A stretch of DNA of 59,110 bases, filler included, from an uncultured virus (IMG/VR IMGVR_UViG_2061766007_001796) (Duplodnaviria; Heunggongvirae; Uroviricota; Caudoviricetes). It is 6 parts of one record of this genome, joined end to end, with 100 filler letters (N's around TTAATTAATTAA, not from the genome) between each part and the next. Parts side by side here need not be neighbours in the genome. Positions count along the whole stretch, not along the records: positions 2,638 to 19,143 come from IMGVR_UViG_2061766007_001796; 5 more parts are not named here. One strand, 5' to 3'. This document shows, in pieces, positions 2,594 through 36,566 of the stretch (the stretch's first letter is position 1; every line of letters starts with the position of its first letter). The notes under the pieces are model-generated. The model had not been told where the DNA came from and did no database searches. It saw only the letters and a program-made list of their open reading frames with translations. A program made the translations under genes and the position numbers.

Positions 2594-2723
2594 NNNNNNN
2601 NNNNNNNNNNNNNNNNNNNNNNNNNNNNNNNNNNNNNTTACAACGGTTGACCACTACAAAAGGTGGAATACCGCTAAATGGAGTTTGTATGCGAGTATGT
2701 GGGCGCTCCCACTNNNNNNNNNN

Positions 2724-2976
2724 GATACCTATGGAAAAGTTAAAGTCATTAGCGAAGATTTCGGTTGATATGATGGGCTTCTCTCTCAACGATTTCAATT
2801 TCAGCAAGATTGACTTTGATAAAAATATTGTCCCAAGGACATATACACACAAGCGAGTATTAGCAAATGTTAAGTTTATTTGCTTCGCATTTAGAAACTA
2901 CAACAGTTCGAACTCCGTGTTGAGTTCACTGGTTGTCACTTATACACTGCCATACCCAAGTTACGGTGGAGATTAG
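2724..2976 (+). CDS. C-terminal fragment of a probable tail/virion protein
   Basis: Open frame ending ...LVVTYTLPYPSYGGD, stop overlaps the RBS (AGGAGG) of the next gene; 5' part lost in gap. Confidence 0.45.
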
Positions 2977-2988
2977 GAGGATTACACT

Positions 2989-3648
2989 ATGAAAAAATGG
3001 CTCAAAACATTATTTATCTCATGCGCACTAGTGCTTACGGGTGCGTGTTTTGTGAGTGCTTATGCAAGCACAAGCAGAGGCGTGTACGCGGAAGGAGAAG
3101 AAACTAGTGAACCAGTAGTGGTAGAAGAAGAACCCGCTGAAGAACCAAAAGAAAACTGGGTTAAACAAACTTATGACACTTATGTGGTTCCGCTTTTTGC
3201 TAGTGTTTCTATTACCTCTATTGGCAGTGCAATCATTTGTATTGTTGCTACGGCTCTTAAAAACAAAGAACTCAACAAAAAATTGCTTGCTATGAATGAG
3301 GCATTCCAAGAACGTATGGAAGAAGCCAATAGAAAGTCAATGCTTGCTGAAGAAAAACTCGCTGAAGCCACCGAAATGCTTGCTCTAGCGAGAGAAGGAT
3401 ATGCATTGATTAAAGAAAGCGACGCTCTTAATAAAGAAACAAAAGAGTTCCTTGTCAGCAATGTTAACTTTATTCTTAATAAACTCGAAGAAAACAGCAA
3501 AGAAATTGCTAAAATCGAACAATTCAAACGAGTTTTGGCTCTTCTTGTTCAACTTCAAACTAAAGTTGCGAAGCAATCTCAAGAGATTGTTAAAAGTGGC
3601 ATTGTTGACGACGTAAATGAGATTGTTGCTTTAGTCAAAGAACTCTAG
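2989..3648 (+). CDS. Membrane-anchored coiled-coil protein (signal peptide, one TM helix, helical C-terminus)
   Basis: AGGAGG RBS; N-terminal signal-like segment, hydrophobic VVPLFASVSITSIGSAIICIVATAL, charged heptad-like tail. Confidence 0.75.
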   Translation: MKKWLKTLFISCALVLTGACFVSAYASTSRGVYAEGEETSEPVVVEEEPAEEPKENWVKQTYDTYVVPLFASVSITSIGSAIICIVATALKNKELNKKLLAMNEAFQERMEEANRKSMLAEEKLAEATEMLALAREGYALIKESDALNKETKEFLVSNVNFILNKLEENSKEIAKIEQFKRVLALLVQLQTKVAKQSQEIVKSGIVDDVNEIVALVKEL

Positions 3649-3693
3649 GAGGTACTTTATGTTAAAGAAGACCACACCTAAACNNNNNNNNNN

Positions 3694-4528
3694 TAGTGAA
3701 GGCAAAGCGGATTATGCAATCGCTGACGAAGATGGTAATAACATTGCTGATACTTATGAAACTAAGACCGACGCTTCCTCTAAGTTTAATACTAATAAAT
3801 CTGAAATAGATAAAATCAAAGACGGTACAACCGTCGTTCCAAAAGCCCAAAAAGACGAAAGTGGCAACAACATTAAATCAACTTATGTTGCCGATATGAC
3901 ACATGCTTTAAGCGGTAGCACAACACAAGTTACTTTATCAATTAGTTTGAGAAACAAATTGGGCGAAGTCGTTTCGACTTTCAACCAAGCCATTGGTGGT
4001 GCGTCTTCAACCTATGCTGGCATTTTAACTTCCGAAGATAAAGTTAAGATTGACGCTATTGCTGGTGACATTGCTACTGCGCTTGCTCAAGCAAANNNNN
4101 NNNNNNNNNNNNNNNNNNNNNNNNNNNNNNNNNNNNNNNNNNNNNNNNNNNNNNNNCAAAACTAATCTTGACACTTTAATGGCTTTATTAGGTAGCAATG
4201 ACGCTGACACAGTTGTTGACACAATCAGAGAAGTTCTTGCTATTTTTGAAAACTATCCAGAGGGTGCAGACCTTGTTGGTGAACTTGCTAAGAAAGTTAA
4301 TGTTCTCGACATTATCAACGATTTAACTAGTGACGAAACCGCTAAACCATTAAGTGCTAAGCAAGGTAAAGTCTTAAAAGGTCTTATCGACGCATTAGAC
4401 AGTGCTAAAGCAAATGCTAGCGACGTCTATACAAAAGGAACAATCGACACTCTCTTAAGCGGTAAAGCCGATAAGAGTGATACATATACAAAGGCTGAAA
4501 TCCAATCTTTAATTGCTGGTTTCGTTTT
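3694..4528 (+). CDS. Tail fibre N-terminal region, allele fragments
   Basis: Near-identical to 6855-6959 and 11198-11937. Confidence 0.75.
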
Positions 4529-4538
4529 NNNNNNNNNN

Positions 4539-5065
4539 CTAAACTCACCACGGTTGACCACTATAAAAGATGGAATACCGCTAAATGGAGTTTGTATGCG
4601 AGTATGTGGGCGCTCCCACTTGCTCCAGCAACTGCAATGACCATCATTAACTGGGACGAATGGTTTGCTAAATCTGGCTTGTCATTGCCGTTTGGCTTTG
4701 CCACATTACTAGCGTCGACCTTACTATCTATCATTGGTATTTGGAAAAAAGACGAAATCGTTAATAAGACTGTTTCAGTGGTTTATTACTTAGCGTTAGT
4801 ATTTACTGGCTTTGGCGTTTCATTCTTATTTTTAGCCAGTTTATACCAAATGATTGGTTATATGATGTTGGCTACCGCTGGAGGTTTGCTTGCCAGTGGT
4901 ACGGTTGACCAAATCAATAAATCTTTAGTTAAACCTAACGTTGCGTTTTACAAAAAACTTATTGAAGAAAACTGCTTAGACGAAAAGTCTAAACGTAAAA
5001 AGCAAAGAGAAGAACAAGCAAGAAGGGAAGCAGAAGAAGACGCTCAGAGACAAGCGACTGAATAA
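4539..5065 (+). CDS. Four-TM membrane protein; true start is the fragment at 3659 (MLKKTTPKLTTVDHYKRW...)
   Basis: The 3659-3683 fragment (RBS AGGAGG) overlaps 4539 (ctaaac); four hydrophobic segments and a charged C-terminus. Confidence 0.7.
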
Positions 5066-5067
5066 TT

Positions 5068-5307
5068 ATGAAAAAGAATAAAAAAGGCATTTTTGAAGGC
5101 AAAAGCAAGTGGATTATTATCTCCACAATCATTTTTGCCATCCTCGGCATTACAGCATTAGTATTAGGCTTTGGTCTAACTTACGGTTTTATGAGCGTGC
5201 TCAAGTGGTTTGGTAGCAGATGGGCAATCTATATTTATATTATTGTTGCTTTATTGGCGTTTTTAACTGTTTGGGTTTATTTCAAAAACAAGATAGGAGA
5301 AGACTAG
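5068..5307 (+). CDS. Small two-TM membrane protein (holin-like topology)
   Basis: 79 aa, basic N-terminus, two hydrophobic helices, tightly packed in the operon. Confidence 0.65.
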   Translation: MKKNKKGIFEGKSKWIIISTIIFAILGITALVLGFGLTYGFMSVLKWFGSRWAIYIYIIVALLAFLTVWVYFKNKIGED

Positions 5308-5308
5308 T

Positions 5309-6536
5309 ATGCTTAATAAAAAATTAAATCTTAAGAAAATCCTTGCTTACGCCTTATTAGGCGCTTTAGTGATTTTTATCGCGTTTTTAAGTTGGATACC
5401 ATTAGACTTTAATATCCAAAATCTTAATGTTGAAAAATGGATTAGCAACTCTCTCATTTGCATGGGCATTATGGTATGTTCCATCATATTGGGTGAAATC
5501 TTGTGCGAAGACAAATTAAAACAACTAGTAAATGGTTTGTATCAAATTGCTCTTAAGGCATATAACGACATTAAAAAGAGACTTCAAGATACTGGTATTA
5601 TTGTTTTCTTTTCCCAATGGTATATTGACTTTAAGGCTAAAGAACTCTTGCGCAAAAAAGAGGGTTATCTTGTTGACCACGGTTTTGACCAACAATGTGC
5701 TCATTTAATTGTGAGATACATTGAGCGTGACGACATCGAAGAAATGTGCAAGGGTGTGTACATTAAAAAGTTAAATAACGGCAAAGAAATCAAGTTCAAG
5801 CGTATTCACGAAGACGAATATGAAGTCTTAAAAGAAATCTTTTCAACCGACTTTATCATTGACGCTCCTAAATACACATATTATTTAAGCGCCTTTGGTG
5901 ATAGTTCAAGTCAATCAGTTCTNNNNNNNNNNTATTGACGCTCCTAAGTACACATATTATTTAAGCGCCTTTGGTGATAGTTCAAGTCAATCGGTTCTTG
6001 AAGACAGCAAGCGCATTGAGAAAAAAGAACGTATGAATAAGACGTTCAACCGTGTGTTTAAAATTACACTTTCATTATTTGTTTCATTTATTTGGGGCTT
6101 GGCAACCGTTAAAGACATCATGGAAGGTGGCGCTAAAGAAGCGGTGGCAAACACTATATCACGCTTTATTGCTTTATTTGGTGGTCTTTTAAGCGGTGTA
6201 TTAACAAGCGTTGTAGCAGTCAAGTTAGCCTCACAAAAATTAGATAATAAAACACAAGTTTTGTCCTTTATGGAAATTGATTATAACACCAAGGCGTTTG
6301 TTCCTAAAACTTATGACGAACTNNNNNNNNNNTGCTAAAGAAGCGGTGGCAAACACTTTGTCACGCTTTATTGCTTTATTTGGTGGTCTTTTAAGCGGTG
6401 TATTAACAAGTGTCGTAGCGGTCAAGTTAGCCTCACAAAAATTAGATAATAAAACACAAGTTTTGTCCTTNNNNNNNNNNCATTGAAGAAGAAATCAAGG
6501 AAGAGAACGACACAGTTATTAAAAAGGAAGACTAGA
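5309..6536 (+). CDS. Membrane protein with N- and C-terminal TM pairs (split over overlapping allele fragments)
   Basis: AGGAG RBS; fragments 5309-5922, 5933-6322, 6333-6470 and 6481-6536 overlap in sequence. Confidence 0.7.
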
Positions 6537-6596
6537 CAAAAATTGTATTTATTTATAAATAACACCCATTCAAAATATCTTTAAGGAGGATAGCGT

Positions 6597-6959
6597 ATGG
6601 CAATGAAAAATATCCAAAAAATTACTACCGAACAAAGACAAACTTTGTTATCAAAAAGTGCTTATGTTTTACCAGACAACCCATCTGATAAGAACTTTTC
6701 ACCGTCACAAATTAAAAGGAAGTTATATGAGGGCTTATTAGTCCTAGTAGACTACACAAACCTTTTAATTGACGCAATCAACGAAAACACCGCTCTTTCT
6801 AATAGTGACATCGAAGCAATTAACAGCAATATCACAACTCTTCTTAGTTACTTCAGTGAAGGCAAAGCGGATTATGCAATCGCTGACGAAAATGGTAATA
6901 ACATTGCTAATACTTATGAAACTAAGACCGACGCTTCCTCTAAGTTTAATACTAATAAA
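6597..6959 (+). CDS. Tail fibre / receptor-binding protein, true N-terminus
   Basis: AAGGAGG RBS; its end (SEGKADYAIADE.GNNIA.TYETK) overlaps the 3694 fragment, which leads into 11198-16015. Confidence 0.75.
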
Positions 6960-6969
6960 NNNNNNNNNN

Positions 6970-9900
6970 TGCTGGTGGCACATTAGCGTTTAATCAATTA
7001 GTGAATAATGGTAACTTTGCTAGTTCAAGTTTAACAGGGTTTTTCTCTGGGAGAGCAACAAGCACTGTGTCTAGTGGTGCTTGCCAAACAGTTGGCACAG
7101 CAAACGATTTCTATATTGAATGGACTTTCAAAACAGTAGCAGGTCATAAATACTTATCTTTTGTTACAGTAAAATGCGACCAATCATATACAAATTATGG
7201 AGTTAGAGTTTATAACTACTTTAATAATCTTGCCAACAACGTCCATACTGATACATTAACGAACACAAGTTATACCACAGTAAGTTTAATGTTTAGTCCA
7301 TCTTCAACCAACAATAATTCTTTATTAAGAATTGTGTGTCCTATTTATGATAGTAATGGTAGCAGTTTTACAAGTAAGAATTGGCAAATCTTTGACCTTA
7401 CCGATATGTTCGGTGGAACTATCGCAGATTATATCTACAACCTAGAACAAGCGACTGCTGGTGCTGGTGTAGCGTGGTTTAAGCGTTATTTCCCAAATAC
7501 CTATTACGCATATAACGCTGGCACATTAGTCAATGTCCAAACAAGTGGCAAAAAGTATGTTGGGTTTAATCAAGCAAAATCAATTACAGTAGGTAGTGCT
7601 ACTTATAGATATGGCGACGCTCTTGTTATTAACTGTGATTTATTACCAGATACATATTATTGTTTAAGTCTTGTTGGTAAAAATGGATATGTTTATTACA
7701 ACAACGAAGTGATTACTACTGGGTGGACACAATTATCTTGTAATGGCAACAGACAATATATTGTTTTAAAAACCATATCGGATTATGGCAAATTGTTAGC
7801 AAGCAAGACTGCTAATGGTTATGTATTCTTAAAGAACAACGCAGATAGTCAAACTAATGAGTTTAGCGATGTCTGCCTTAATTTCCACTACGATGGTGAA
7901 AGAGATGGCGAATACGAGCCATACGGAAGCAACGAATACGCATTAAGTCCTGTTGAATTGCGTGGTATTGCAAAGAAAGACGCACAAGGTAATCTCTACT
8001 TTGATGGTGATAGTTATACACCAGACGGTAAGGTTGTTAGAAGATATGCCATTGTTGATTTAGGTAGTTTGACTTGGTATAGAGCCAAATGGGGAAATAA
8101 TTATACTTTTTTAAGTGGTGGTATAGCGAGTTTAGTGAATTGGAATGTTCCTTATGGCGAATTAGAAAAACGATTTATGGTATCATCAAAGTTTTTAAGG
8201 GCGCAATTATGGGTTGTTGAAAATGGAGATGTTGATAATACTATCACAATTAGAAACTCTGGCGCAGAAGGAAGTATAGAAGTCCGTTGTGATACATATA
8301 CAGACGCTACTGCATTCAAAACAGCAATTTCTGGTATCTATCTCCTTTACGAACTTGCTACACCAACCGAAGAAACCACCGATACCTATCAAGAAACACA
8401 ACAAGTTGATAACTNNNNNNNNNNTGAAAACCAAGCAGTCACTAAAGAACTTAATAAAAAAGCATATATTGATGGCAACTACCAAACAATGTCCGTAGGC
8501 GAAGCAACCGATTTATCTACAACTCGTGTTATTGATAACCCAGAAGATAGTTGCCCACCGATTACAATGGGTGTTACTGGTGGCAATGCCGAAATTAGAA
8601 ATGGCTTGCAAAAGTTCCAATATATGGAAGGCAATAGCATTGTTTTTAATCAATTCTGCGATAGAACAACAGCGTTGACTGCAAGTAGTGGAAATCAACT
8701 ATGGGCGCAAGCAGGAAACGCTTTTAGCATTCCACAAGGTCATAAAGTTTTGTTTGCAGTCCACCAAGATATGACAATTGCAGAAGCGCAAAGAAATACT
8801 TTTCTTGCTTATTATAGTGGTGGAACAGTAGTTAAGCAAAGTGAAGCAAGCAATAGAAACTTGCAAGCAGGAACATATTATTGGATATTTACAACAACTG
8901 GCACATTAACTCATATTGGTATTTGGTTGCAAGGTTATGGTAGTGGAAATGCAAGTTATAGCAATTTCCAAGTCTTTGATTTAACCGCTATGGGATTAGC
9001 AGACATTACTACTTATGACGAGTTTAAATCTCGTTTCCCATTAGATTACTACGCCTATAATGCTGGCTCTATTTTAAGTGCTAAAACCAATGCCTTAATC
9101 AGTAGAAAAAGACAACAATGGGATGAAGTGTGGGAACAATACGGCATAAATGATACAACTGGATTACCAGACGAAACTAGTGGTCAAATAAGAAGCAAAA
9201 ACTTTATTCCAGTTATTCCTAATACCAATTATTATTTCCGTTGTAGCAATTCACCTTATCTTTGGGCATACGCTTATGATGAAAATGGAAATTACATAGA
9301 CCGAATTAGAAAAGATGGAGCAACAGACTTAAAAAATAAGTTTGCTCAAACACCAAATAATTGTAGATATTTGAAAATTAAAACATTAGAAACTACTTAC
9401 CACAATGACATTACCATTTCCGTTTACTTTGAAGATGGCGAAGGATATGACCAATACTATCCTTACGACCCACAAGTAGTTGAATTGCCTAACATTGAAT
9501 TACGAGCCATTGGTGATATTAAAGATATTGCCTATGCAAGTGGTGGTGGTAAGAGAAAAGTTTGGTTAGTAGATTTAGGAACATTAAACTGGAATTATTA
9601 TTCTTCTGGTAGTTATTTTTGGACAAACTTACCAAAAGCACCAAAAAACAAGACATTGAATATGATAATTTCAAATGGTGCTTATACAGTTGTTAAGGAT
9701 GGAACTACAAATAAGTCAATAAAAACTTGGGGTAATACAGACTTGCCTTTAAGAATTGTTATTACAGATAGTTCATTTACGGATGTAACAACGTTTACAA
9801 GTTCTTTGCAAAATGTTTACTTACTCTACGAACTTGCAACCGAAGAAGATTTAACCGAAAACGAAGGCTGGGTTGAAAATGTTGTCGTTGACAACTATGG

Positions 9901-10200
9901 CACACTAGAGTTCGTTACTGACCCACAACAAATCCCACAAGTCAAGCAACCATATTTCATTGAATACACAATTTCGTTGAAAGAGTTTTTAGATGGCGCA
10001 TATCAAAGAGCAAGTGGTAATCCACAAGAAATTGCTTTGGTTGAAGAAGTTGAACAACTTGAAAGTGATTTAGCAAATGGTAATGTTATTCCATTACTTG
10101 CCAACAATTTAAGTACCAAAGTAGTCCAAAACGATGTTGACGCTTTCAACTTTAGAACTGCTGGTGGCTCACTAGAAATCGGTGAAACTTGCAAAGTCAA
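6970..10200 (+). CDS. Tail fibre / receptor-binding protein, allele A (modules out of order across the gap at 8415-8424)
   Basis: Shares scaffold motifs with 11270-16015 (FNQLVNNGNFAS, YFPNTYYAYN.GTLV, NFHYDGERDGEYEPY, RRYAIVDLG.L.W, YELAT) but has different inserts. Confidence 0.75.
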
Positions 10201-10210
10201 NNNNNNNNNN

Positions 10211-11159
10211 TGAGGCGTGGCTCACTGACCATAGTGTTATGACCTTAATGAAATGGGTGTTTGACACGTTAGAGTTTGCTATTATTATGTCGTTTGTTTT
10301 AAGAAAGCCAGTCAAATGGTATTATGTTCTAGTGTTTTATGGCATTGCCATGATATTTGCTGGCTTTATTCATGTGCCTATGATTTTTTATAGGCTATAT
10401 CCTTTTGCGTTTTATTTTCTAGTACCAATACTAGACATGTTTATTGAAGACAAACGTTTTAGTGTAAAGAACTATGGCTTTGAAATGATTAGATTTGTTA
10501 TAGCAATGGCTGTCGTCTTTACGCTTCAAATTATGATTTTTGTAATCAAAAGCGGAAGTTTCACGGTGGAAAGAAAAGATTTTTCTTTGTCTGCCAACTT
10601 TTGCTATGCAATAGAATATGACATTGCCCTATTAGTAATTCTATATACATTAGAATTATTTATACATAGGGAGAAAGGAGACGGCAAATTATGGACGATG
10701 TACCATGGTGCTGGTTTATCTTCCCAGATTTCGAAGAAGAAATCGCGGAGATTGAAACTGACGAAGACACAGAAGAATAGGCTTTTTTGGCTTTACGCTA
10801 AGTTCTATCTTACTCAACTTGGTGCGTTCTTACTTTTAATGGTTTTGCCTTTCTTTTTAGGCAAATTATTTGAGTTCCTAATGATGTATTTAGCATTCGC
10901 GCTTGCTAGATACTTACTTGGGTTCAAGTATTCNNNNNNNNNNNNNNNNNNNNNNNNNNNNNNNNNNNNNNNNNNNNNNNNNNNNNNNNNNNNNNNNNNN
11001 NNNNNNNNNNNNNNNNNNNNNNNNNNTTTATTGGGAGTTGGGTTAGCGGTGCTTCTCCACTTATCTTATAAATACAAAGGCATGTTTCTCTTTGCTCAAG
11101 TTGCTAGACCCGATAAGTTCGCTGAATTATACGTGATTATGGATGGAGCAACTATATAA
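10211..11159 (+). CDS. Multi-TM protein with C-terminal AgrB-like domain, allele 1 (5' part and catalytic motif in gaps)
   Basis: Homologous to 16992-18143; ends identically in DGATI-stop. Confidence 0.75.
10691..10780 (+). CDS. Nested out-of-frame AgrD-like propeptide MDDVPWCWFIFPDFEEEIAEIETDEDTEE (29 aa), allele 1
   Basis: AAGGAG at 10675-10680 then ATG; Cys plus four hydrophobic residues followed by an acidic tail; same length and stop position in allele 2. Confidence 0.8.
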   Translation: MDDVPWCWFIFPDFEEEIAEIETDEDTEE

Positions 11160-11197
11160 CATATATTTTTTAGTATCAATCGCATTNNNNNNNNNNT

Positions 11198-14100
11198 GGT
11201 ACAACCGTTGTTCCAAAAGCCCAAAAAGACGAAAGTGGCAACAACATCAAATCAACTTATGTTGCTGATATGACACATGCTTTAAGCGGTAGCACAACAC
11301 AAGTTACTTTGTCAATTAGTTTGAGAAACAAATTGGGTGAAGTCGTTTCTTCCTTTAATCAAGCCATTGGTGGTGCGTCTTCAACCTATGCTGGCATTTT
11401 AACTTCTGCCGATAAAGTCAAGATTGACGCTATTGCTGGTGACATTGCTACTGCGCTTGCTCAAGCAAAGGCATACTCAGACGCACTCGTAGCACGTGCT
11501 AACTTAGTGACCATCATTGGTAACGCCAGTTCTAGTTTAAGTGGCTTAATGAGCGCTACTGATAAAACTAATCTTGACACTTTGATGGCGTTATTAGGTA
11601 GCAATGACGCTGATACGGTTGTTGACACAATCAGAGAAGTTCTTGCTATTTTTGAAAACTACCCAGAGGGTGCAGACCTCGTTGGTGAACTTGCTAAAAA
11701 AGTTAATGTTCTTGACATTGTCAACGTTTTAACAAGCGACGAAACTGCTAAACCATTAAGTGCTAAGCAAGGTAAAGTTTTAAAAGGTCTTATCGACGCA
11801 TTAGACAGTGCTAAAGCAAACGCTAGTGATGTCTATACAAAAGGCACAATTGATACTCTCTTAAGCGGTAAAGCCGATAAGAGCGATACATATACAAAGG
11901 CTGAAATCCAATCTTTAATTGCTGGTTTCGTTTTTGCGGATATTGACGACGAACTTGACGAAGAAAGCACAAACGCTATCGAAAACCAAGCAGTCACTAA
12001 AGAACTTAATAAAAAAGCGTATATTGATGGTAACTATCCAACTTTAATTGTTGGTCAAGCGGATAGTATTACAAGCAACAGAGTTATTGAAGATATTGAC
12101 CAAGCGTGTCCTCCAATTACGATTGGAACAACTGGTGGCGAAGCGGAAATTGCCGACGGTTTTAGCAGATTTAAAGAATTATATGGTAATTCTTTTGTTT
12201 GGAACAGTTTATTTAAAATAAGAACCAACGCTTCTACTTATTTAGGCGTTACTTGCACCCCAAACGCAAACGGTTCAATTACCTTAACTGGCGGTATCAC
12301 TGGAAATGACAACGCTTACATTAACTTAACAAGTGCAAAGTTTAGGCTTGTTAATGGTCATAAATATTTAGTGTTGGGCGCTAGTGCTTTGTGTAGTGCT
12401 ATTACAAACTCGTTTGTTCACATTAACTTAACTGGTAGCAATATGACACAAGTTACGAGCGACAGCATTATAACTTGTGGAGTTAATGGTGAAGCATATT
12501 TCTATTTGCTTATTCCAACCTCCGCTACAAGCGTTAACTTTACTGGCTTCTTCCAAATCTATGACCTTACAATGATTTATGGTAGTGGTAAAGAGCCAAC
12601 TACGGTTGACGAGTTTAAATCTCGTTTCCCTAATAATTACTACGCTCACGACGCAGGAACACCGATTTCTTCAAAATCTTATCAACTTATTTCTCGTGGA
12701 GAAAATCAATGGAACGAAGAATGGGGTTGCTATCACTGGGTTGGCGGAACTAGACACGATTACGCTAACGGTATTGGTTGCTCTGAACCAGTGAGAGTTA
12801 TTGGTGGTGAAACTTACTATTTCGAATACCCAGCGGGTGCAACAATAGGTTTTGTAACCCTTGATATTAACGGCAATTTAATTGGTGCTAATGATAATTA
12901 TGTAAACAATTCGAGCCATAGAACAACCCTCCCACAAAACTGTGCTTATATTGGCTTTTGGGTTAACAATTATGGTTTGGTATATCATAACGATGTTATG
13001 GTTCGTTTGTATTGGGATACACCTAATAGAAACTATGTCGCAAACGATTTTCAAGTAGTCGATTTGCCAAACATTGAATTAAGAAGTGTTGGAGATGTTG
13101 AAGACGTTTTATATTCAACTGGTGGTGGTAAGAGAAGGATTGGAAAGTTAATTGTAGATGGCACAAACAATACTAATATGAGTGTTGCCACAAGTAACAA
13201 TATCACAAGATTTACTGTTGATATTTCTAACGCAAAGGCGCCTGCTGGTAATTATTACATTGCAGAAACATTGTTGTCTGCCTTTGAAAACGTTAGTTTC
13301 GACGATATAGCAGGATATAACGGTTCGTTAACAAAAAACAGCGTTGCCTTATATAGTTCGACTAGAATTAGTTTTTATGTAGTTGGCAAAACAACATTGG
13401 CTGAATACCAAGCGTATTTCCAAAGCAACCCATTAACAGTTTTATTTGAACTAGCCGAAGAACAAGATATAACCGAAAACGAAGGCTGGGCTGAACTTGT
13501 AAAAGTTAATAACTTTGGCACATTAGAGTTTGTTTCAAATCCACAACAAGTTCCACAGCCAGAGCAAGCGTATTATATAGAATATACTGCAAATTATGTT
13601 GACTTTATTGATACAGCGTTTGCTAACACGGATGGTGACGCAAACAACTTTGTTGTAAGAGGCGAGTTTGAAGACGTTATCGAAGGTAGAACAGTGGTTG
13701 CTAAAGCACAACTTGCAGACAATCTTGATAGTAAAGTAGTCCGAAACGATGTTGACGCTTACACATTTAGAACTGCTGGTGGCTCACTAGAAATCGGTGA
13801 AACTTGCAAAGTCAAAGAAATCGTTGGTGGCACATTAGCGTTTAATCAATTAGTGAATAATGGTAACTTTGCAAGTAATAGTGGTTGGTTAGGTGCAAAA
13901 GGTTCTGTCTCAATAAGCAACAATACACTTATTTACACCGCAACAGAAATTGCCAATAACTACTATGACAACTATGCTTATCAAGATGTTTATTCAAGAG
14001 TAGTTGTTGGACATAAATACTTGGCTATTTGTTACGCAAAATCATCAAAAGCATTCCCATCAAGATTGTTTGTTTCTGGTTCTAGCATTATTGCTAGGAA

Positions 14101-16015
14101 TGTTGTTAATTTAACAAATAGTTACTCTATGTTATATGGTTTCTTCCAAATCACAGGAATTGCTTGGAATAGATTAGAAGTCTCACCAGATATGTCAACT
14201 TTAGGTGCAGTTAATGATACAATTCAAGTTCAGAACTTTGTATTATTTGACCTTACTGCTATGTTTGGTTCAACTATTGCCGATTATATCTGCTCGTTAG
14301 AAACTGCAACTGCTGGTGATGGTGTGGCTTGGTTTAAAAAGTATTTCCCAAATACCTATTACGCATATAACACTGGCACATTAGTTAATGTTAAAACAAG
14401 TGGCAAAAAGTATGTTGGGTTTAATCAATTAGATTTAGTGAATTATAAAGGAACACTGGCAAGAATATCTGCTTATAGCACAACCGCTAGTGATATTACA
14501 ATTACCACAGACGGAACGAATACAGACTGCTATGTCGGTAGCGTTACAGCACCTACATTAAACCCAACAAATGATTTACCAATTAAAGTAGTTGGTGGGC
14601 AATCTTATAATTTATCTGTTACTTTGCCAACAAATGTTTCAAATGTTACTAGATTTGCTATGTGCTTTGGTTGGTATGACGCTAACTTTAACTACATCAA
14701 CTTCAACTGGATGGACTTTGGCAAAGTTGCAGGCAGTAGAATAAGTGCCAACAAAACAGCACCAGAAAACGCTAGATATATGACAGTAAGATTTGGTGTT
14801 AATCAAACTGCTATGAGCGTTGAAACATTTACTTTCAAAGATATTTGTGTCAACTTCCACTACGACGGTGAAAGAGATGGCGAATATGAGCCATACGAAG
14901 AACACACATGCCAATATGAAGATATTGATTTAATCGGTATTTCAAAAATTGACGCACAAGGTAATCTATACTTTGATGGCGACAGTTATACACCAGACGG
15001 TAAGGTTACTAGAAGATATGCCATTGTTGATTTAGGAACGCTAAATTGGAAAAAAGATAATGGTTATACTGATGTATTCTATGTTAGTGATTTAACTGGA
15101 ATTAAAAGAGTAGGTGGTAATGACTTATCTAACATTATTGCAAGCCAAAGATATGCAACAGCAATTCAATCGCAAGTTAGTGGAACAAATGCTCAATATG
15201 ACAAAACAATTTCAACATTAAACTGGACTGATGGTTTATTGTTAAGAGATAGTAGTTATAGTGATAAAGATGTTTTGAAATCAAGTTTAAGTGGTGTTTA
15301 TCTTGTCTATGAACTTGCAACTGAAACCGAAGAAACCACCGATACCTATCAAGAAACACAACAAGTTGATAACTGGGGAACTGAACAATACTTACCACCA
15401 GAAGAAGATACAAGACCATGCGAAATACCAGTAGGTCATAGCACAGACTACTTGCTTGACATTCGTTCAAAGGTTGAGATTATGCCAGATTTACCAAGCG
15501 ACGATGGTGTCTATGCTTGTAAAGTTGAAAGCGGAACTGCTGAATATGTGCCATTAGGTGCTTGGTTAAGCGATAATGGTTATGTAAATCAAATTAGTGC
15601 TAACGCTATTAAAGAAAACATTGGTGGATTGTTAAGACACCAATTAGTGGCGCAAGTTGTCGCTGGAGGCGGAACATTAGATTTTAATAACACTGCTTGG
15701 GTCGATTTAGGAACATTAGACAACTGGTCTAGTAACACAACAAGCGGTGCTTCAAAACGATTATTCCAAAGCGTTAGTTTGGCTAATTTGGCTAAGAAGC
15801 CATCAAGCAGTGGAACAAAAGCAAATATCTTATGCGTTATATATAAGACAGTTGACGCTAATACTCAATGGACTGACGCAACTACATCAAATATCGGTTT
15901 GACTAATAGTGGAACACTAACCATTTTAGACCAAACAAAACAGAGTTTAGACGCAACTGCATTCAAAAATGCTATGAAAGGTGTATTACTTGCCTACGAG
16001 AAAGCGAGTTCATAA
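11198..16015 (+). CDS. Tail fibre / receptor-binding protein, allele B, two tandem modules with CBM-like inserts
   Basis: About 1600-codon open frame; fibre-type N-terminal repeats (LSAKQGKVLKGLID, KADKSDTYTKAEI); repeated VDLGTL.W and YELA motifs. Confidence 0.8.
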   Translation, partial: GTTVVPKAQKDESGNNIKSTYVADMTHALSGSTTQVTLSISLRNKLGEVVSSFNQAIGGASSTYAGILTSADKVKIDAIAGDIATALAQAKAYSDALVARANLVTIIGNASSSLSGLMSATDKTNLDTLMALLGSNDADTVVDTIREVLAIFENYPEGADLVGELAKKVNVLDIVNVLTSDETAKPLSAKQGKVLKGLIDALDSAKANASDVYTKGTIDTLLSGKADKSDTYTKAEIQSLIAGFVFADIDDELDEESTNAIENQAVTKELNKKAYIDGNYPTLIVGQADSITSNRVIEDIDQACPPITIGTTGGEAEIADGFSRFKELYGNSFVWNSLFKIRTNASTYLGVTCTPNANGSITLTGGITGNDNAYINLTSAKFRLVNGHKYLVLGASALCSAITNSFVHINLTGSNMTQVTSDSIITCGVNGEAYFYLLIPTSATSVNFTGFFQIYDLTMIYGSGKEPTTVDEFKSRFPNNYYAHDAGTPISSKSYQLISRGENQWNEEWGCYHWVGGTRHDYANGIGCSEPVRVIGGETYYFEYPAGATIGFVTLDINGNLIGANDNYVNNSSHRTTLPQNCAYIGFWVNNYGLVYHNDVMVRLYWDTPNRNYVANDFQVVDLPNIELRSVGDVEDVLYSTGGGKRRIGKLIVDGTNNTNMSVATSNNITRFTVDISNAKAPAGNYYIAETLLSAFENVSFDDIAGYNGSLTKNSVALYSSTRISFYVVGKTTLAEYQAYFQSNPLTVLFELAEEQDITENEGWAELVKVNNFGTLEFVSNPQQVPQPEQAYYIEYTANYVDFIDTAFANTDGDANNFVVRGEFEDVIEGRTVVAKAQLADNLDSKVVRNDVDAYTFRTAGGSLEIGETCKVKEIVGGTLAFNQLVNNGNFASNSGWLGAKGSVSISNNTLIYTATEIANNYYDNYAYQDVYSRVVVGHKYLAICYAKSSKAFPSRLFVSGSSIIARNVVNLTNSYSMLYGFFQITGIAWNRLEVSPDMSTLGAVNDTIQVQNFVLFDLTAMFGSTIADYICSLETATAGDGVAWFKKYFPNTYYAYNTGTLVNVKTSGKKYVGFNQLDLVNYKGTLARISAYSTTASDITITTDGTNTDCYVGSVTAPTLNPTNDLPIKVVGGQSYNLSVTLPTNVSNVTRFAMCFGWYDANFNYINFNWMDFGKVAGSRISANKTAPENARYMTVRFGVNQTAMSVETFTFKDICVNFHYDGERDGEYEPYEEHTCQYEDIDLIGISKIDAQGNLYFDGDSYTPDGKVTRRYAIVDLGTLNWKKDNGYTDVFYVSDLTGIKRVGGNDLSNIIASQRYATAIQSQVSGTNAQYDKTISTLNWTDGLLLRDSSYSDKDVLKSSLSGVYLVYELATETEETTDTYQETQQVDNWGTEQYLPPEEDTRPCEIPVGHSTDYLLDIRSKVEIMPDLPSDDGVYACKVESGTAEYVPLGAWLSDNGYVNQISANAIKENIGGLLRHQLVAQVVAGGGTLDFNNTAWVDLGTLDNWSSNTTSGASKRLFQSVSLANLAKKPSSSGTKANILCVIYKTVDANTQWTDATTSNIGLTNSGTLTILDQTKQSLDATAFKNAMKGVLLAYEKASS

Positions 16016-16027
16016 AGGAGATAACTT

Positions 16028-16171
16028 ATGATACATAAAATTGATAAAGGTGATTATTACTTAATCAAAGCCGATAGTGGCAAACTTCGTATCAAAGGTG
16101 ACGACAGAGTTTATAGCGGGGCTACTGAACTCAAAGACAAGCCACGTGAATATGAGGAAGTAATCGACTAA
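16028..16171 (+). CDS. Small protein (47 aa) after the tail fibre
   Basis: AAGGAG RBS; conserved allele at 16847-16990. Confidence 0.75.
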   Translation: MIHKIDKGDYYLIKADSGKLRIKGDDRVYSGATELKDKPREYEEVID

Positions 16172-16265
16172 TATGAAACTTCTAAAGGATAGTTTATATC
16201 TCACGAAACCTCAGTGGCGTAAATTATTCTTGGCGACGACTATTATGGTTGTCGCNNNNNNNNNN

Positions 16266-16833
16266 AGAACAATACTTACCACCAGAAGAAGACACAAGAC
16301 CATGTGAAATCCCAGTCGGTCATAGCACAGACTACTTGCTTGATATTAAGTCAAAAGTAGAAATCGCACCAGATTTACCAAGTGACGATGGTGTATATGC
16401 TTGCAAGGTTGAAAGTGGAACTGCCGAATATGTGCCATTAGGAACTTGGTTAAGTGATAATGGGTATGTAAATCAAATTAGTGCTAACGCAATTAAAGAA
16501 AACATTGGTGGTGCGTTAAGACATCAACTTGCTGAAAGTGCTAATATTGATTTCCATAATACAGCGTGGGTTGATTTAGGCGATTTGAATTGGGGATATG
16601 GAAATAATAGATTTAGTGCGACTGTAAGTGGTGCTGTGTCTGTTTCTCATAATTGTTTATGTCCATTATATAAAACCGCTGATGGTTGGGCTTCAAACCC
16701 AAGAGTTGATATGGAAATGTCATTTGGCTCAAATAGTTTATTATTTGTTCAAAACAATTCTTACACCGACGCAACAGCATTCAAAAACGCTATGAAAGGT
16801 GTATTACTTGCATACGAGAAAGCGAGTTCATAA
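16266..16833 (+). CDS. Tail fibre C-terminus, alternative allele
   Basis: Matches 15383-16015 with a different terminal insert; same end ...KGVLLAYEKASS. Confidence 0.8.
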
Positions 16834-16846
16834 GGAGGACTAATTT

Positions 16847-16990
16847 ATGGTTCACAAAATTGATAAAGGTTCTTATTTCTTAATCAAAGCCGATAGTGGC
16901 AAACTTCGTATTAAAGGTGACGACAGAGTTTATAGTGAGGCTACTGAACTCAAAGACAAGCCACGTGAATATGAGGAAGTAATTGACTAA
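16847..16990 (+). CDS. Small protein (47 aa), allele of 16028-16171
   Basis: AAGGAGG RBS; MVHKIDKGSYFLIKADSGKLRIKGDDRVYSEATELKDKPREYEEVID. Confidence 0.75.
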   Translation: MVHKIDKGSYFLIKADSGKLRIKGDDRVYSEATELKDKPREYEEVID

Positions 16991-16991
16991 T

Positions 16992-18143
16992 ATGAAACTT
17001 CTTAAGGATAGTTTATATCTCACAAAACCTCAGTGGCGTAAATTATTCTTGGCGACGACTATTATGGTTGTCGCCCTTTATATCGTTGCAATGGTTTTCT
17101 CGTTGTGCGGTAGCAAGTATTTTATTCTCAATTATCAAAACGAACAAATGGATAGGATACAAAATTGGCTAGAGAAGTATAATTTATCTAACGTAATCAA
17201 TTCAGTCTTTTGCGCCATAGAGTTTTTCATAATTGCAACTTTTATGGTTAAAAAGCCACCAAAGTGGTATCTCGTATTAGCATTTATAGTGTTGCCTTTG
17301 GTGCCACACTATATTTTCGGAAAACTACCAGACATTTATTATTCAGCATATCCATTTTTGTTTTATTTAATAGCACCGCTATTCTGTAAAAAGTTTGGCA
17401 AGGATTATGCCTTTTGTCTTTTGAGATTGTTAATTGCTATGGTTGTTGTTTTTATTTTACAAATAATGATATTTATTATTAAAAGCGGTGGATTAACTTT
17501 TGAAACTGTCATTTTTCCATTATCCAGTGCTTTTATTTATGCTTTAGAATACGATATAGCCTTATCAATAGTGCTTTTTACGATTGCGCTATTTTCCGAT
17601 AAGGAGAAAGGAGACAGCAAATCATGGGCGATTTCCCACAATGTTGGTTCATTTTCCCAGACTTCGAAGAAGAAGTCGCGGAAATTGAGTTTGACGAAGG
17701 CACAGAAGAATAGGCTTTTTTGGCTTTACGCTAAGTTCTATCTTACTCAANNNNNNNNNNTTCTTTGGTTAAGATTTTATCTTATTCAACTTGGTGGATT
17801 TTTACTTTTAATGGTTTTGCCTTTTCTTTTAGGAAAGGTTTTTGAGTTCTTGACCATGTATTTAGCATTCGCGCTTGCTAGATACTTACTTGGGTTCAAG
17901 TATTCGCTCCATTTTAAGAAAGAAACACTTTGTATTACCGTTGGCGCGGTAGTCTTCGGCATATTGTCACTTGCTGTCCCTTTCTTTTATGTCGTAGTCA
18001 TTATGGCTATCTTATTAGGAGTTGGGTTAGCGGTGCTTCTTCACTTATCTTATAAATACAAAGGTATGTTCTTGTTTGCGCAAATATCTAAACCCGATAA
18101 GTTCGCGGAGTTATATGTGCTTATGGATGGAGCAACTATATAA
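16992..18143 (+). CDS. Fusion membrane protein: about six N-terminal TM helices plus AgrB-like peptide-processing domain, allele 2
   Basis: ARYLLGFKYSL-H-FKKETL-C gives the R...H-x6-C arrangement of AgrB (His 17910-17912, Cys 17931-17933) after a TM hairpin; one gap join at 17751-17760. Confidence 0.75.
   Translation: MKLLKDSLYLTKPQWRKLFLATTIMVVALYIVAMVFSLCGSKYFILNYQNEQMDRIQNWLEKYNLSNVINSVFCAIEFFIIATFMVKKPPKWYLVLAFIVLPLVPHYIFGKLPDIYYSAYPFLFYLIAPLFCKKFGKDYAFCLLRLLIAMVVVFILQIMIFIIKSGGLTFETVIFPLSSAFIYALEYDIALSIVLFTIALFSDKEKGDSKSWAISHNVGSFSQTSKKKSRKLSLTKAQKNRLFWLYAKFYLTQXXXXLWLRFYLIQLGGFLLLMVLPFLLGKVFEFLTMYLAFALARYLLGFKYSLHFKKETLCITVGAVVFGILSLAVPFFYVVVIMAILLGVGLAVLLHLSYKYKGMFLFAQISKPDKFAELYVLMDGATI
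17624..17713 (+). CDS. Nested out-of-frame AgrD-like propeptide MGDFPQCWFIFPDFEEEVAEIEFDEGTEE (29 aa), allele 2
   Basis: AAGGAG RBS; residues 7-17 identical to allele 1 with four synonymous changes. Confidence 0.8.
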   Translation: MGDFPQCWFIFPDFEEEVAEIEFDEGTEE

Positions 18144-18168
18144 CATATATTTTTTAGTATCAATCGCA

Positions 18169-18197
18169 TTGATAACAGTGCATAAATTATATATAAT
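18169..18197 (+). promoter_or_regulatory. sigmaA-type promoter TTGATA-N17-TATAAT for the endonuclease (probably leaderless transcript)
   Basis: Near-consensus boxes; ATG 8 nt after the -10 with no SD. Confidence 0.65.
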
Positions 18198-18205
18198 ATA
18201 AGTGT

Positions 18206-18958
18206 ATGAAAAATGAAAGCCTTTTTTATGTTTATGAATGGTTCGTTAAGAATACTGGCGAAGTCTTTTATGTTGGTAAAGGTTGCGGTAATAGATATAA
18301 AAGCACATCTAAGCGAAATAAGTGGTTCAAGGACTATATTAAAGCGTTTGAGTGCGAAGTAAGAATTATCAAACGTTTTGAAAACGAAGAAGAAGCGTTT
18401 GCTTTTGAACATAAAAGGATTATGGAACTCAAAGCGAGCAATTTAGCCAAAGCAAACCTTGATTATGGTGGCAAGGGTGGCAGTCATTTTGATTGGACTG
18501 ACGAGATGAAACAATACAAATCAGAGTACAACCCTATGAAATCATTTGAGCAACGCCAAAGAATGAAAGAAAATAACCCTATGAAGAACAAGCAAACGCA
18601 AGACATCGTTTACAATAAAACAAGAAAAAAAGTAGTCTTAAATGGTGTTATTTATAGTGGCGTTTTAGAGGCTTCACGAGTGACTAAGCACACAAGCAGT
18701 ACGATAGTTAAGTGGTGCAGACGTGGTTATGATAACAATGGCAAGCCTTGCAGGTATTTTAACGAAACACAAAAAGAAATACCTCTGGTTAAACAACTTC
18801 ACCCAAAATCAGCAACACCAAAAGCAGTCGTTGTAGACGGGGTTAGATTTGAAACGGTAGAAGACGGTGCTAAACATATTGGTGGCAACAGCAGTAATCT
18901 TATAAGGGCAATAAAAGCACATAGAGCGTATCTAGGTCACACTTGCTCATACGCATAA
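18206..18958 (+). CDS. GIY-YIG homing endonuclease with C-terminal NUMOD-like DNA-binding repeats
   Basis: YVYEW...FYVGKG..NR, later E (AFAFEH) and N (LANL..GG.G); NPM repeats; two HTH-like repeats. Confidence 0.8.
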   Translation: MKNESLFYVYEWFVKNTGEVFYVGKGCGNRYKSTSKRNKWFKDYIKAFECEVRIIKRFENEEEAFAFEHKRIMELKASNLAKANLDYGGKGGSHFDWTDEMKQYKSEYNPMKSFEQRQRMKENNPMKNKQTQDIVYNKTRKKVVLNGVIYSGVLEASRVTKHTSSTIVKWCRRGYDNNGKPCRYFNETQKEIPLVKQLHPKSATPKAVVVDGVRFETVEDGAKHIGGNSSNLIRAIKAHRAYLGHTCSYA

Positions 18959-19012
18959 CAATTACTGCTACAACACAAGTGGGTAGCCTATCTTTCGACG
19001 CTNNNNNNNNNN

Positions 19013-19143
19013 GCTTTTAATGGTTTTGCCTTTTGTTTTAGGCAAATTATTTGAGTTCCTAATGATGTACTTTGCATTCGCGCTTGCTAGGTGCTTACTT
19101 GGGTTCAAGTATTCGCTCCATTTTAAGAAAGAAACACTTTGTA
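19013..19143 (+). CDS. AgrB-like domain fragment, further allele
   Basis: LLMVLPFVLGKLFEFLMMYFAFALARCLLGFKYSLHFKKETLC; H-x6-C conserved. Confidence 0.7.
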
Positions 19144-19243
19144 NNNNNNNNNNNNNNNNNNNNNNNNNNNNNNNNNNNNNNNNNNNNTTAATTAATTAAN
19201 NNNNNNNNNNNNNNNNNNNNNNNNNNNNNNNNNNNNNNNNNNN

Positions 19244-20851: not shown

Positions 20852-21255
20852 AGCAACTTAAAGAGTTCGCTTATAGAGCCTTCGACATGATTAAAAGAAA
20901 CGTAGACGAAGAAACTTATGACGACATTGAATTGTTGCTTTATAAGGACGTTTATGGCTATCACTTTACCAAGTGGTTATTAGAGAAAGCATATTGTTGT
21001 ATGGAAAATGAAGATGGCACTAAAGGCGCGCATTGGTCGCTTGAGCAGACGAACAACGTTGCCAAAAATAATGGCGTCACCTTTGAACATTTCAACGAAT
21101 ATGACTGGAACTATGTTATGAATATGATGTATAGCGATTACTACAAAGCGGGTGGTAGCGATGTCAATTTTTATGTCGAACTTGCTAAAGCGTTTTTAAT
21201 GGACAAAGACGCTCCCGAAGGGAAGGCATTAAAATACTACCTTGCAATGAAATAA
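20852..21255 (+). CDS. Conserved hypothetical phage protein (GAHWS...YDWNYVMNMMYSDY); N-terminus MHRKIIEEASLEQLK lies on the inverted fragment 20486-20536
   Basis: Overlap gagcaacttaaaga between the fragments; followed by a terminator. Confidence 0.7.
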
Positions 21256-32254: not shown

Positions 32255-32354
32255 NNNNNNNNNNNNNNNNNNNNNNNNNNNNNNNNNNNNNNNNNNNNTT
32301 AATTAATTAANNNNNNNNNNNNNNNNNNNNNNNNNNNNNNNNNNNNNNNNNNNN

Positions 32355-34812: not shown

Positions 34813-35258
34813 TTAACCACCGCCTTGTCTAAATCGTAATAAATATCACAATATGTGCTATCCCAAGCGTCGTCTATGTCACTTAAATACATAGGGTGTT
34901 TAGTGTCAATAGGATACCAAGACCTATTCCCACCGCCTTGTCTAGCGTGAACGTATAACACGTTCTTGCCTACATACTCATTCCACATTTCGTATTGCGC
35001 TGTGTATGCCTTGACAATTTTCTTCCACGCAAACTTAATATGCTTTCTTAATTTTCCGTGGACTTTAGAAAAGTCAACGTCAATTACTGTGTCATAGCCA
35101 TTTTTATCTTTGCCATAGATAAAAGACTTATGCCAGTGTTTTTCTCTGCTACTGCTCCAGCACCAGTCACTACGTTGNNNNNNNNNNTGTATTTCGATAT
35201 TGTTATCAGCGAGGATATTTCCTAAATCCTCTATTTTAGCGTAAGCACCTAAATCCAT
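34809..35258 (-). CDS. Hypothetical phage protein (MDLGAY...STYCDIY); allele at 37699-38220
   Basis: GAGG RBS; two alleles; internal gaps. Confidence 0.7.
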   Translation of the reverse strand: MDLGAYAKIEDLGNILADNNIEIXXXXQRSDWCWSSSREKHWHKSFIYGKDKNGYDTVIDVDFSKVHGKLRKHIKFAWKKIVKAYTAQYEMWNEYVGKNVLYVHARQGGGNRSWYPIDTKHPMYLSDIDDAWDSTYCDIYYDLDKAVVK

Positions 35259-36534: not shown

Positions 36535-36566
36535 NNNNNNNNNNGTAATTAAATGTCCAAGGTATT

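Follow-up and report, generated by a model that had tools for sequence, protein, structure and literature searches.

Within the window analysed here (the whole stretch of 59,110 nucleotides (nt), filler included, from the uncultured tailed virus IMGVR_UViG_2061766007_001796 of the Caudoviricetes), two copies were found of a gene whose product combines a membrane domain, a linker and an AgrB-like domain, and each copy harbours a short open reading frame (ORF) in the -1 frame relative to this surrounding, or host, gene. We consider it probable, at a rough estimate of 0.6, that the nested ORF is a real, separately initiated gene overprinted on the host gene, and that its product is a leaderless AgrD-like precursor of a lactone or thiolactone peptide, processed by the surrounding AgrB-like domain. 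Comparison of homologous sequences makes purifying selection on the nested frame well supported, and the layout of the peptide and its setting make an AgrD-like function probable.

According to the scheme that we favour, a ribosome would initiate independently at the nested ATG and read, in the -1 frame, across a stretch of the host gene that encodes a disordered linker. The resulting precursor would open with a short tail of variable sequence (M-[D/G]-D-x-P-x); next would come Ser or Cys and four aromatic or hydrophobic residues, together forming a 5-residue ring, then an invariant Pro and an acidic tail of 18-21 residues. The AgrB-like domain would then cleave behind the ring Phe and form a lactone (with Ser) or, as in the window, a thiolactone (with Cys), the product being a cyclic peptide of ~11 residues that would require no leader-removal step before leaving the cell. 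That the released peptide is read by the phage or by its bacterial host as a density or kin signal is speculative.

The nested ORFs of the window

The two nested ORFs (Table 1) are each preceded, at a distance of 9 bases from the ATG, by the same Shine-Dalgarno-like 12-mer, and their products can be laid out as MDDVPW-CWFIF-PDFEEEIAEIETDEDTEE and MGDFPQ-CWFIF-PDFEEEVAEIEFDEGTEE. An earlier reading made from the DNA alone (hereafter the sequence-only reading) had stated that the two ORFs share ribosome-binding site, start, length and stop, and that they differ in the residues preceding the Cys; both statements are borne out by the sequences and their translations. The same is true of its claim that residues 7-17 (CWFIFPDFEEE) are identical despite four base differences (TGC/TGT, TTT/TTC, ATC/ATT and GAT/GAC), all four being synonymous for the nested ORF while each changes the host protein (A/V, L/S, S/F and I/T; HGAGLSSQIS versus HNVGSFSQTS). 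Over the full 90 nt the copies differ at 16 positions, of which 4, 4 and 8 fall on the first, second and third positions of nested codons, and the proportions of synonymous (pS) and nonsynonymous (pN) differences are 0.75 and 0.10 in the nested frame, versus 0.16 and 0.22 in the host frame. Elsewhere in these genes this frame meets one stop per ~13 codons, so that 30 open codons would arise by chance in ~9% of cases, and the chance that four out of four differences fall on third positions is ~1/81; the window pair alone is therefore weak evidence.

Table 1. Coordinates of the host genes, the nested ORFs and associated elements in the window.
Feature	Position	Strand	Description
Host gene, copy 1	10182..11159	+	325 codons as listed; membrane N-domain, linker, AgrB-like domain; ends ...MDGATI, then stop
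Shine-Dalgarno-like element of nested ORF 1	10670..10681	+	GGAGAAAGGAGA; read in the host frame as (R)EKGD
Nested ORF 1	10691..10780	+	29 codons, ATG to TAG, -1 frame relative to the host gene; product MDDVPWCWFIFPDFEEEIAEIETDEDTEE
R..G motif DNA of copy 1	10905-10933		His/Cys of copy 1 hidden by an N run
Host gene, copy 2	16983..18143	+	386 codons as listed; likely start ATG 16992 (MKLLKD, as in homologs)
Shine-Dalgarno-like element of nested ORF 2	17603..17614	+	GGAGAAAGGAGA
Nested ORF 2	17624..17713	+	29 codons, ATG to TAG; product MGDFPQCWFIFPDFEEEVAEIEFDEGTEE
AgrB-like domain, copy 2	17763..18140	+	126-amino acid (aa) piece; invariant R..G..H-x6-C at 17877-17933, H/C at 17910-17933
Orphan third AgrB-like fragment	19013..19143	+	131 nt; encodes LLMVLPFVLGKLFEFLMMYFAFALARCLLGFKYSLHFKKETLC (...LGFKYSLHFKKETLC); 94% identical to copy 1, 90% to copy 2

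Conservation of the nested ORF in homologous loci

Homologous loci were collected through motifs in the C-terminal part of the host protein (YSLH[YF]K[KN]E and others), the peptide itself never being used as bait. These scans retrieved 15 loci (12 from metagenomes, 1 from a genome and 2 viral); for the viral contigs, a scan with the single 126-aa piece returned no relatives, as against two with the alignment-based scan. One locus (L013) turned out to be the same contig as another (L002), and a further one (L012), which comes without the N-domain and the start of the linker, was excluded; with both window copies included, the data set comprised 14 distinct DNA sequences encoding 13 distinct peptides.

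In 14/14 linker-bearing loci there is a nested ORF, 32-37 codons long and likewise in the -1 frame, that has its ATG at the same site and is preceded in every case by [AG]GG[AG]GAAAGGAGA; the 12-mer GGAGAAAGGAGA, with GGGGAAAGGAGA as its one variant, occurs in all 14 homologous sequences. The peptides, exemplified by MDGYPQSWWFFPNIEDAIAEIVAEESDEDTKE and MGDIPFSFFFFPNFEDKLAKIVVEEPIEETEE, conform to the consensus M-[DG]-D-x-P-x-[S/C]-[WF]-[WF]-[FI]-F-P-[ND]-x-[ED]-[ED]-x-[ILV]-A-x-[IV], followed by the acidic tail. The segment before the putative ring is six residues long in 13/14 sequences and 11 in L009, MYEQYRLDPPQSWWIFPDFDEAIAEIESEESVEESED being the sole peptide with a longer front; positions 4 and 6 of this short tail are the most variable of the peptide, with seven different residues each. 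The pattern [S/C]-[WF]-[WF]-[FI]-F and the invariant Pro behind it were found in 14/14 sequences, the residues after the nucleophile varying among WWFF, WWIF, WFIF and FFFF, and the tail that follows (18-21 residues) is rich in Glu and Asp. A profile built from the 13 peptides and searched against 1.84 billion representative proteins matched five proteins at E<=0.001, all of them 30-37 aa long and sharing the pattern, four having Ser and one Cys.

The sequence-only reading had tied its interpretation to conservation of the Cys. Taken literally, the Cys is not conserved: it is confined to the lineage of the window, both copies of which carry it (TGC/TGT), while the site is occupied by Ser in 12/14 DNA sequences (TCA, TCC or TCT in 11, AGT in L002). 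The site nevertheless stays Ser or Cys through switches among the TCN, AGY and TGY codon families, and because Ser is the other known ring nucleophile, found in GBAP (gelatinase biosynthesis-activating pheromone) as well as in the autoinducing peptide (AIP) of S. pseudintermedius (PMC12312760), this switching strengthens the interpretation.

Which of the two frames is constrained

Nested codon position 3 coincides with host position 2, and nested position 1 with host position 3, so that the nested-frame and host-frame models predict opposite patterns of substitution. Fitch steps, counted on a tree built from the flanking parts of the protein, amount to 24, 13 and 45 at nested positions 1, 2 and 3 of nested codons 12-26; for reference, host positions 1, 2 and 3 took 604, 379 and 890 steps within the N-domain, the AgrB domain having 240, 93 and 492. 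The core counts depart from the host-frame expectation (chi-square, p=5e-14) and agree with the nested-frame expectation (p=0.38), with the proviso that the 14 sequences are related and that these p-values, like the dicodon figures given below, overstate their independence. A sliding profile of nucleotide diversity shows the order 3>1>2 of host positions everywhere except at alignment columns ~240-275, where host position 2 is the highest. Pooled over 78 pairs (L010, near-identical to L006, was dropped from this count), nested codons 8-25 yield an uncorrected pN/pS of 0.48 when read in the nested frame, against 1.12 when read in the host frame, a ratio that is biased in overlapping frames; the corresponding values for the flanks are 0.46 in the N-domain and 0.25 in the AgrB domain. 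Substitutions in the first ~26 nested codons thus follow the nested frame. In nested codons 33-40, toward the 3' end, the steps flip to 25, 6 and 12 and the host motif NLTKTQ is conserved: near the peptide stop, constraint returns to the host frame. The selection on the nested frame that the sequence-only reading had claimed from two copies is accordingly upheld by Fitch steps, by the sliding profile and by pS and pN, in the frame-specific comparison across homologs that it had proposed.

The host proteins themselves extend the comparison, since each host residue fixes positions 2 and 3 of a nested codon, and 120 of them can be read in this manner. At the site of the ring nucleophile they carry H (50), P (20), L (18), V (13), A (10) or Q (8), with one gap, and the first two bases of the codons for these residues (CA, CC, CT, GT, GC) permit a nested Ser (TCN or AGY) or Cys (TGY). 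Judged by the preceding residue, 96 are compatible with a TCN Ser and 6 with an AGY Ser, 4 probably encode Cys, 13 are ambiguous and 1 is the gap; the four probable Cys proteins (P0001, P0002, P0021 and P0022) are the nearest relatives of the window. The Pro site reads Q in 112, L in 6 and R in 2 proteins (nested CCA, CCT and CCG), the start site W in 104 and C in 15, both beginning with TG, and at the acidic sites K, M and T alternate, corresponding to nested GAA, GAT and GAC.

The host frame is kept open as well, and both frames are constrained. Across the 14 sequences, 46 dicodons could acquire a host-frame stop by a codon choice that is synonymous in the nested frame (ATA for Ile, GTA for Val, TTA/CTA for Leu, when G follows), and 46/46 avoid it, in genes where ATA makes up 38% of Ile codons, GTA 29% of Val codons and TTA plus CTA 62% of Leu codons. 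The Leu at nested residue 18 is always encoded by CTC, a codon of 3% usage.

The host gene and its AgrB-like domain

The host protein belongs to a family of 154 proteins at E<=1e-3 in 5.8 billion clustered proteins, and one member, P0001, is 95% identical to the product of copy 2. Among the 120 matches listed, most are 430-460 aa long, many bear PF04647 (AgrB), all have been called as one ORF, and one, from a metagenome-assembled genome (MAG) of Bacilli, carries the name 'accessory gene regulator B family protein'. The Pfam AgrB profile (cut-off 23 bits) is exceeded in three of the four homologs scanned (P0030, 28.4 bits; P0007, 29.3; P0017, 26.6), the fourth, P0002, scoring 21.2. The R, G, H and C of the motif R..LGF.YSLH[YF]K.E..C do not vary among 76-77 aligned sequences, and the His and Cys of SLH[YF]KKExxC stand seven residues apart (H-x6-C), which is the spacing of the AgrB catalytic pair; we take them to be equivalent to His77 and Cys84 of S. 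aureus AgrB. The nested ORF is embedded in the same gene as this domain, on its 5' side. Internal restart of translation as a source of the AgrB-like part was considered and rejected, the first host-frame ATG past the nested stop falling within the first helix of the domain.

The N-domain has seven predicted helices, and its fold was uninformative: compared alone by VIA-align it gave a best Z of 6.2, which is noise level for helical bundles, and the best ESM Atlas feature match was 0.81 (noise). A profile search of solved structures returned no match at E<=1, and Foldseek with the whole model found nothing at E<=0.001. In the AlphaFold2 model of P0007 (mean predicted local distance difference test score, pLDDT, 76.9), the linker residues that overlap the nested ORF (220-251) fall below 50; the linker of copy 1 reads HREKGDGKLWTMYHGAGLSSQISKKKSRRLKLTKTQKNR. 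Taken together with the open host frame, this indicates that the linker must be translated yet has little structure of its own. The sequence-only reading had spoken simply of a host protein, which is correct insofar as the frame is kept open, whereas the model predicts the overlapping part of that protein to be a disordered passenger.

Full-length relatives possess ~70 additional C-terminal residues that fold as a helix-turn-helix (HTH) of the sigma-region-4/LuxR type, an extension present in most relatives that places a membrane-tethered HTH on an AgrB-like enzyme. It is matched by Pfam GerE in P0002 (22.3 bits), by Foldseek with a probability of about 0.9 but E>1, and by VIA-align with Z 6-7.9 over model residues 375-446 against many sigma-4/LuxR-type chains, the sole match of the whole model. 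Both window copies and P0001 end before the HTH (...DGATI, then stop), the same 37 bases follow both copies, and no HTH piece was found elsewhere in the window. A search for split or unfused relatives, by way of shorter forms and with a 196-aa AgrB+HTH query, brought up nothing but fragments of this family, most of them on short contigs.

Directly 3' of copy 2 lies an ORF of 250 codons (18206-18958) with a weak match to the I-TevI DNA-binding domain (20.8 bits, cut-off 27); it may be a homing-endonuclease-like insertion at the place where relatives have the HTH end and a gene of ~120 aa. Several small ORFs (~120, ~185, ~136 and ~145 aa) are conserved downstream of the fusion gene in L003, L006, L007, L008, L002, L014 and L015 and include phrog_21718, phrog_16490 and a DUF7841/phrog_38431 protein, the last of which is also found at 20887-21255 of the window. 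In the low-coverage contig L012 (952-1282), the C-terminus of an unrelated ORF (...VEYKLRREAEKSEKTIEEAIADIVVEEESNENTEK, then stop) runs in the nested frame into the acidic tail and the AgrB-like domain; this junction is either a chimeric assembly or a recombinant.

Comparison with AgrD and related systems

In PMC12312760, canonical AgrD is described as a protein of 40-50 residues, in which an amphipathic leader of 24-25 residues is followed by an AIP part of 7-9 residues and then by a charged tail of 14-15; the ring of the AIP comprises five residues and is closed via Cys, or via Ser in some species, AgrB cutting off the tail and closing the ring and MroQ removing the leader. With the AgrB/AgrD pairs of Staphylococcus, Clostridium and Listeria treated in that source, the phage arrangement shares the nucleophile, the 5-residue ring segment and the acidic tail, as well as an AgrB-domain membrane peptidase with conserved His/Cys encoded alongside. 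It differs from them in that the peptide is leaderless and has a Pro directly after the ring, in that it matches no AgrD profile, in that the AgrB domain is reduced to ~4 helices and fused behind an unrelated 7-helix domain, and in that the precursor is encoded within the enzyme gene, in a different frame, with no AgrC or AgrA found (the scope of that search is given below). The missing amphipathic leader, which the sequence-only reading had pointed out, is confirmed: with six residues before the ring in 13/14 sequences (11 in L009), there is no room for the 24-25 residues of the canonical form. As regards its further proposal, a leaderless propeptide whose exocyclic tail could define specificity groups, the absence of the leader and the selection on the nested frame agree with the first part; cyclisation and retention of the tail on the mature product are putative, and specificity groups defined by the tail are conjectural, the ring varying as well. 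We therefore regard the peptide as probably working like AgrD, on the strength of its layout and context, and refrain from assigning it to the curated AgrD family, because the leader, a profile match and the P-x-x-P motif are absent.

Precedents exist for several elements of this organization. In phage lambda, Rz1 is fully embedded in Rz in another frame. There too a small phage gene lies inside a larger one and both products act in one pathway (PMC5295617 and PMC6139136); Rz and Rz1 are, in contrast, spanin lysis proteins of Gram-negative hosts, with no kinship in sequence or function to the genes described here. In Enterococcus faecalis the precursor of GBAP, a Ser lactone, is merged with the gene of the processing enzyme (fsrB/fsrD) and is separately translated (PMC7028047 and PMC12312760); fsrD is in frame with fsrB and downstream of it (PMC7028047), whereas the phage ORF sits, out of frame, upstream of the AgrB-like domain and is wholly embedded, each base thereby serving two products. 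A parallel in lifestyle is agr3 of the Clostridioides difficile phage phiCDHM1, a temperate phage with agr-type signal-production genes and no response regulator (PMC3901668). As described there, phiCDHM1 possesses a separate, host-like agrD (45 aa, with P-x-x-P), a full-length agrB (197 aa) and agrC; here, by contrast, the parts are fused, overprinted, leaderless and kinase-free. An abstract-level search of the literature on AgrB/AgrD in phages, overlapping genes and rumen agr found no account of this arrangement.

Alternative explanations

A number of findings weigh against an AgrB substrate. Six of the peptides compared with Pfam (E<=10) and four compared with NCBIfam (E<=1) matched no AgrD profile, with the limit that HMMER filters may drop very weak matches; no canonical AgrD was present among the matches of the 13-peptide profile; the P-x-x-P motif cited for AgrD in PMC3901668 occurs in 0/14 sequences, which have a single Pro right after the ring; and the amphipathic leader is absent. 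The AgrB-like domain is itself reduced, its match spanning only positions ~3-118 of the 185 in the profile, and the copy 2 piece scores 22.4 bits, just under the cut-off. An AgrC-type kinase domain (PF14501) or LytTR was found neither among the 66 window ORFs scanned with Pfam nor, searched as PF14501 and PF04397, in two complete related phage genomes, so that no receptor was found; an incomplete MAG (G001) has three PF14501 matches elsewhere and no LytTR. To these points must be added that the window is a patchwork assembly (see below), whereby the 3' parts of both copies may be chimeric, and that the relatedness of the sequences and the bias of pN/pS, mentioned above, temper the statistics. 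Most of these observations, together with the uninformative fold of the N-domain, would also fit an ORF translated into something other than a substrate, for example a linear acidic or aromatic micropeptide that regulates or joins the membrane protein or blocks an agr component of the bacterial host, or one whose translation tunes expression of the downstream AgrB-like part. We deem this unlikely, while taking it seriously: an AgrB substrate would be expected to look much like this peptide, with its invariant Ser/Cys-x4-Pro ahead of an acidic tail, and the pattern occurs within a gene bearing the invariant AgrB-like His and Cys; the nucleophile is preserved at one site through switches of codon family; and a purely regulatory upstream ORF would not place 20 residues under constraint.

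Very improbable, in our estimation, is an ORF that is not translated at all, its features being due to host-frame constraint, to a signal in RNA or DNA (such as an internal Shine-Dalgarno-like pause site) or to chance. One might invoke in its favour the ~9% chance of an open stretch of 30 codons, the absence of 10/10 peptides looked up in a 15-billion-protein collection, and the 'SSQTSK' of the host frame, which is conserved too; yet coding constraint in the host frame could not produce a core in which host position 2 is the most variable (45 of 82 steps), the host residues at single sites are chemically unrelated (H/P/L/V/A/Q; Q/L/R) but amount to synonymous codons when the nested frame is read, and disorder is predicted for the host linker. 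An RNA element was also considered and rejected: there is no Rfam match at E<=1, and the fold z-scores of four versions (-1.6, -1.6, +0.6 and -1.0) include none that is significant. Hardly credible, finally, is a peptide made as a C-terminal extension of the N-domain by -1 ribosomal frameshifting, stimulated by the Shine-Dalgarno-like element and with the membrane domain acting as the 'leader'. The nested frame is indeed the -1 frame of the host gene, the strong Shine-Dalgarno-like element lies just upstream, and a membrane anchor would stand in for the amphipathic leader; against this, both window copies have a stop in the nested frame (TAG or TAA) 8 codons before the ATG, the 9-base spacer between the 12-mer and the ATG varies freely and contains no conserved slippery heptamer, and the invariant ATG (14/14 DNA sequences; TG in 119/120 proteins) would be purposeless.

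Two copies in a patchwork assembly

The window contains 75 runs of N, and many of its gaps measure exactly 10 N. At five sites (2538-2637, 19144-19243, 32255-32354, 32853-32952 and 38230-38329) TTAATTAATTAA has a 44-N run on either side, forming a linker that puts stops in all six frames between joined contigs; the window is thus a string of separate contigs. Both copies of the host gene lie 6.9 kb apart within one scaffold segment (2638-19143). Copy 1 has lost its 5' end in a 10-N gap (10201-10210) and contains 93 N at 10934-11026; copy 2 is interrupted by a 10-N gap (17751-17760) with a duplicated overlap.

The sequencing runs that contain the window are bovine gut metagenomes from one sample, with no RNA run among those listed. 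In run X1, a Logan contig of 617 nt and depth 8.94 covers 10211-10797 of copy 1 without differences, and one of 602 nt and depth 53.5 covers 17129-17730 of copy 2; depths in X2 resemble those in X1, and in X3 and X4 copy 2 is present and copy 1 absent. A contig from X3 links 16205 straight to 17025 over a 50-nt repeat, bypassing an ORF of 194 codons (16249-16833) of lower depth; the near-repeats 16020-16210 and 16839-17029 are identical at 176 of 191 bases. The fibre-like ORFs that precede the two copies (7001-10213 and 11270-16015) are homologous, with 36-40% identity and their halves in swapped order, and both end or continue with ...FRTAGGSLEIGETCKV; the swap could represent a strain variant, a domain shuffle or a misordered scaffold. 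The third AgrB-like fragment (Table 1) appears to be a left-over strain-variant contig. A single copy is present in each of two related phages with complete genomes (54 and 50 kb, CheckV 100%), and the same holds for one MAG.

Given the depths of ~9 and ~53, the single copy in relatives, the patchwork and the third fragment, the two copies are most likely versions from two co-occurring phage strains that the scaffolder has set in series. The sequence-only reading had called them alleles; for copies that stand 6.9 kb apart in one window, the same depths and single copies make alleles of co-occurring strains the likelier description. Tandem paralogs within one phage genome would account for the presence of both in one segment between linkers, and for each copy following a tail-fibre-like gene when those genes are only 36-40% identical and have permuted blocks; this remains a minority view, and a somewhat unlikely one, as the unequal depths in X1, the missing copy 1 in X3 and X4, the direct join in the X3 contig, the third AgrB-domain fragment and the single copy in 2/2 complete phages and the MAG count against it.

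Identity between the two copies is 46% in the N-domain, 89% in the AgrB domain, 8/11 in the putative mature 11-mer and 83% in the acidic tail. Across the 14 sequences, identity of the mature peptide correlates with that of the N-domain (rho 0.39) and not with that of the AgrB domain (rho 0.08), which is only a hint, because pairs are non-independent and the peptide adjoins the N-domain.

The phage setting

Tail-fibre repeats, integrase pieces, a cI-like HTH, RecT and YqaJ identify the window as temperate-phage DNA. The lysogeny and recombination module extends over 34243-47242, with integrase pieces at 36245-36598 and 41004-41444, the cI-like HTH at 40154-40666, YqaJ at 42327-42884 and RecT at 44295-44993. 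Neither the window nor its host gene and fibre gene had a DNA or protein match in 50,697 public phage records.

Implications

If the AgrD-like reading is right, the fusion of a membrane domain, an AgrB-like domain and, in most relatives, an HTH raises the idea of a one-protein signal circuit. In its fullest form this would be a complete, kinase-free signalling unit on one transcript: a leaderless lactone or thiolactone pheromone encoded by the embedded ORF would be made by the AgrB-like domain and exported or sensed by the fast-evolving 7-helix N-domain, and transcriptional output would come from the HTH of the full-length relatives. The two window variants, which have the same ring, different tails and very different N-domains, would then represent two specificity groups. 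We offer this elaboration as a rather improbable one; if true, temperate phages of the rumen would possess a means of strain-specific communication comparable to arbitrium, with agr components as its building blocks.

The AgrD-like precursor proposed here would have consequences of its own. Were it confirmed, agr-type cyclic-peptide signalling would reach widespread, uncultured temperate phages of the rumen and gut, where it is invisible to gene callers, and the locus would constitute a clean natural case of dual coding, with an enzyme and its putative substrate written on the same bases. The amphipathic leader and a second protease (MroQ or signal peptidase) would then be dispensable for a peptide of this kind. 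The family would also provide a small repertoire of naturally occurring variants in ring (WWFF, WWIF, WFIF and FFFF, with Ser or Cys) and tail that are easy to synthesise.

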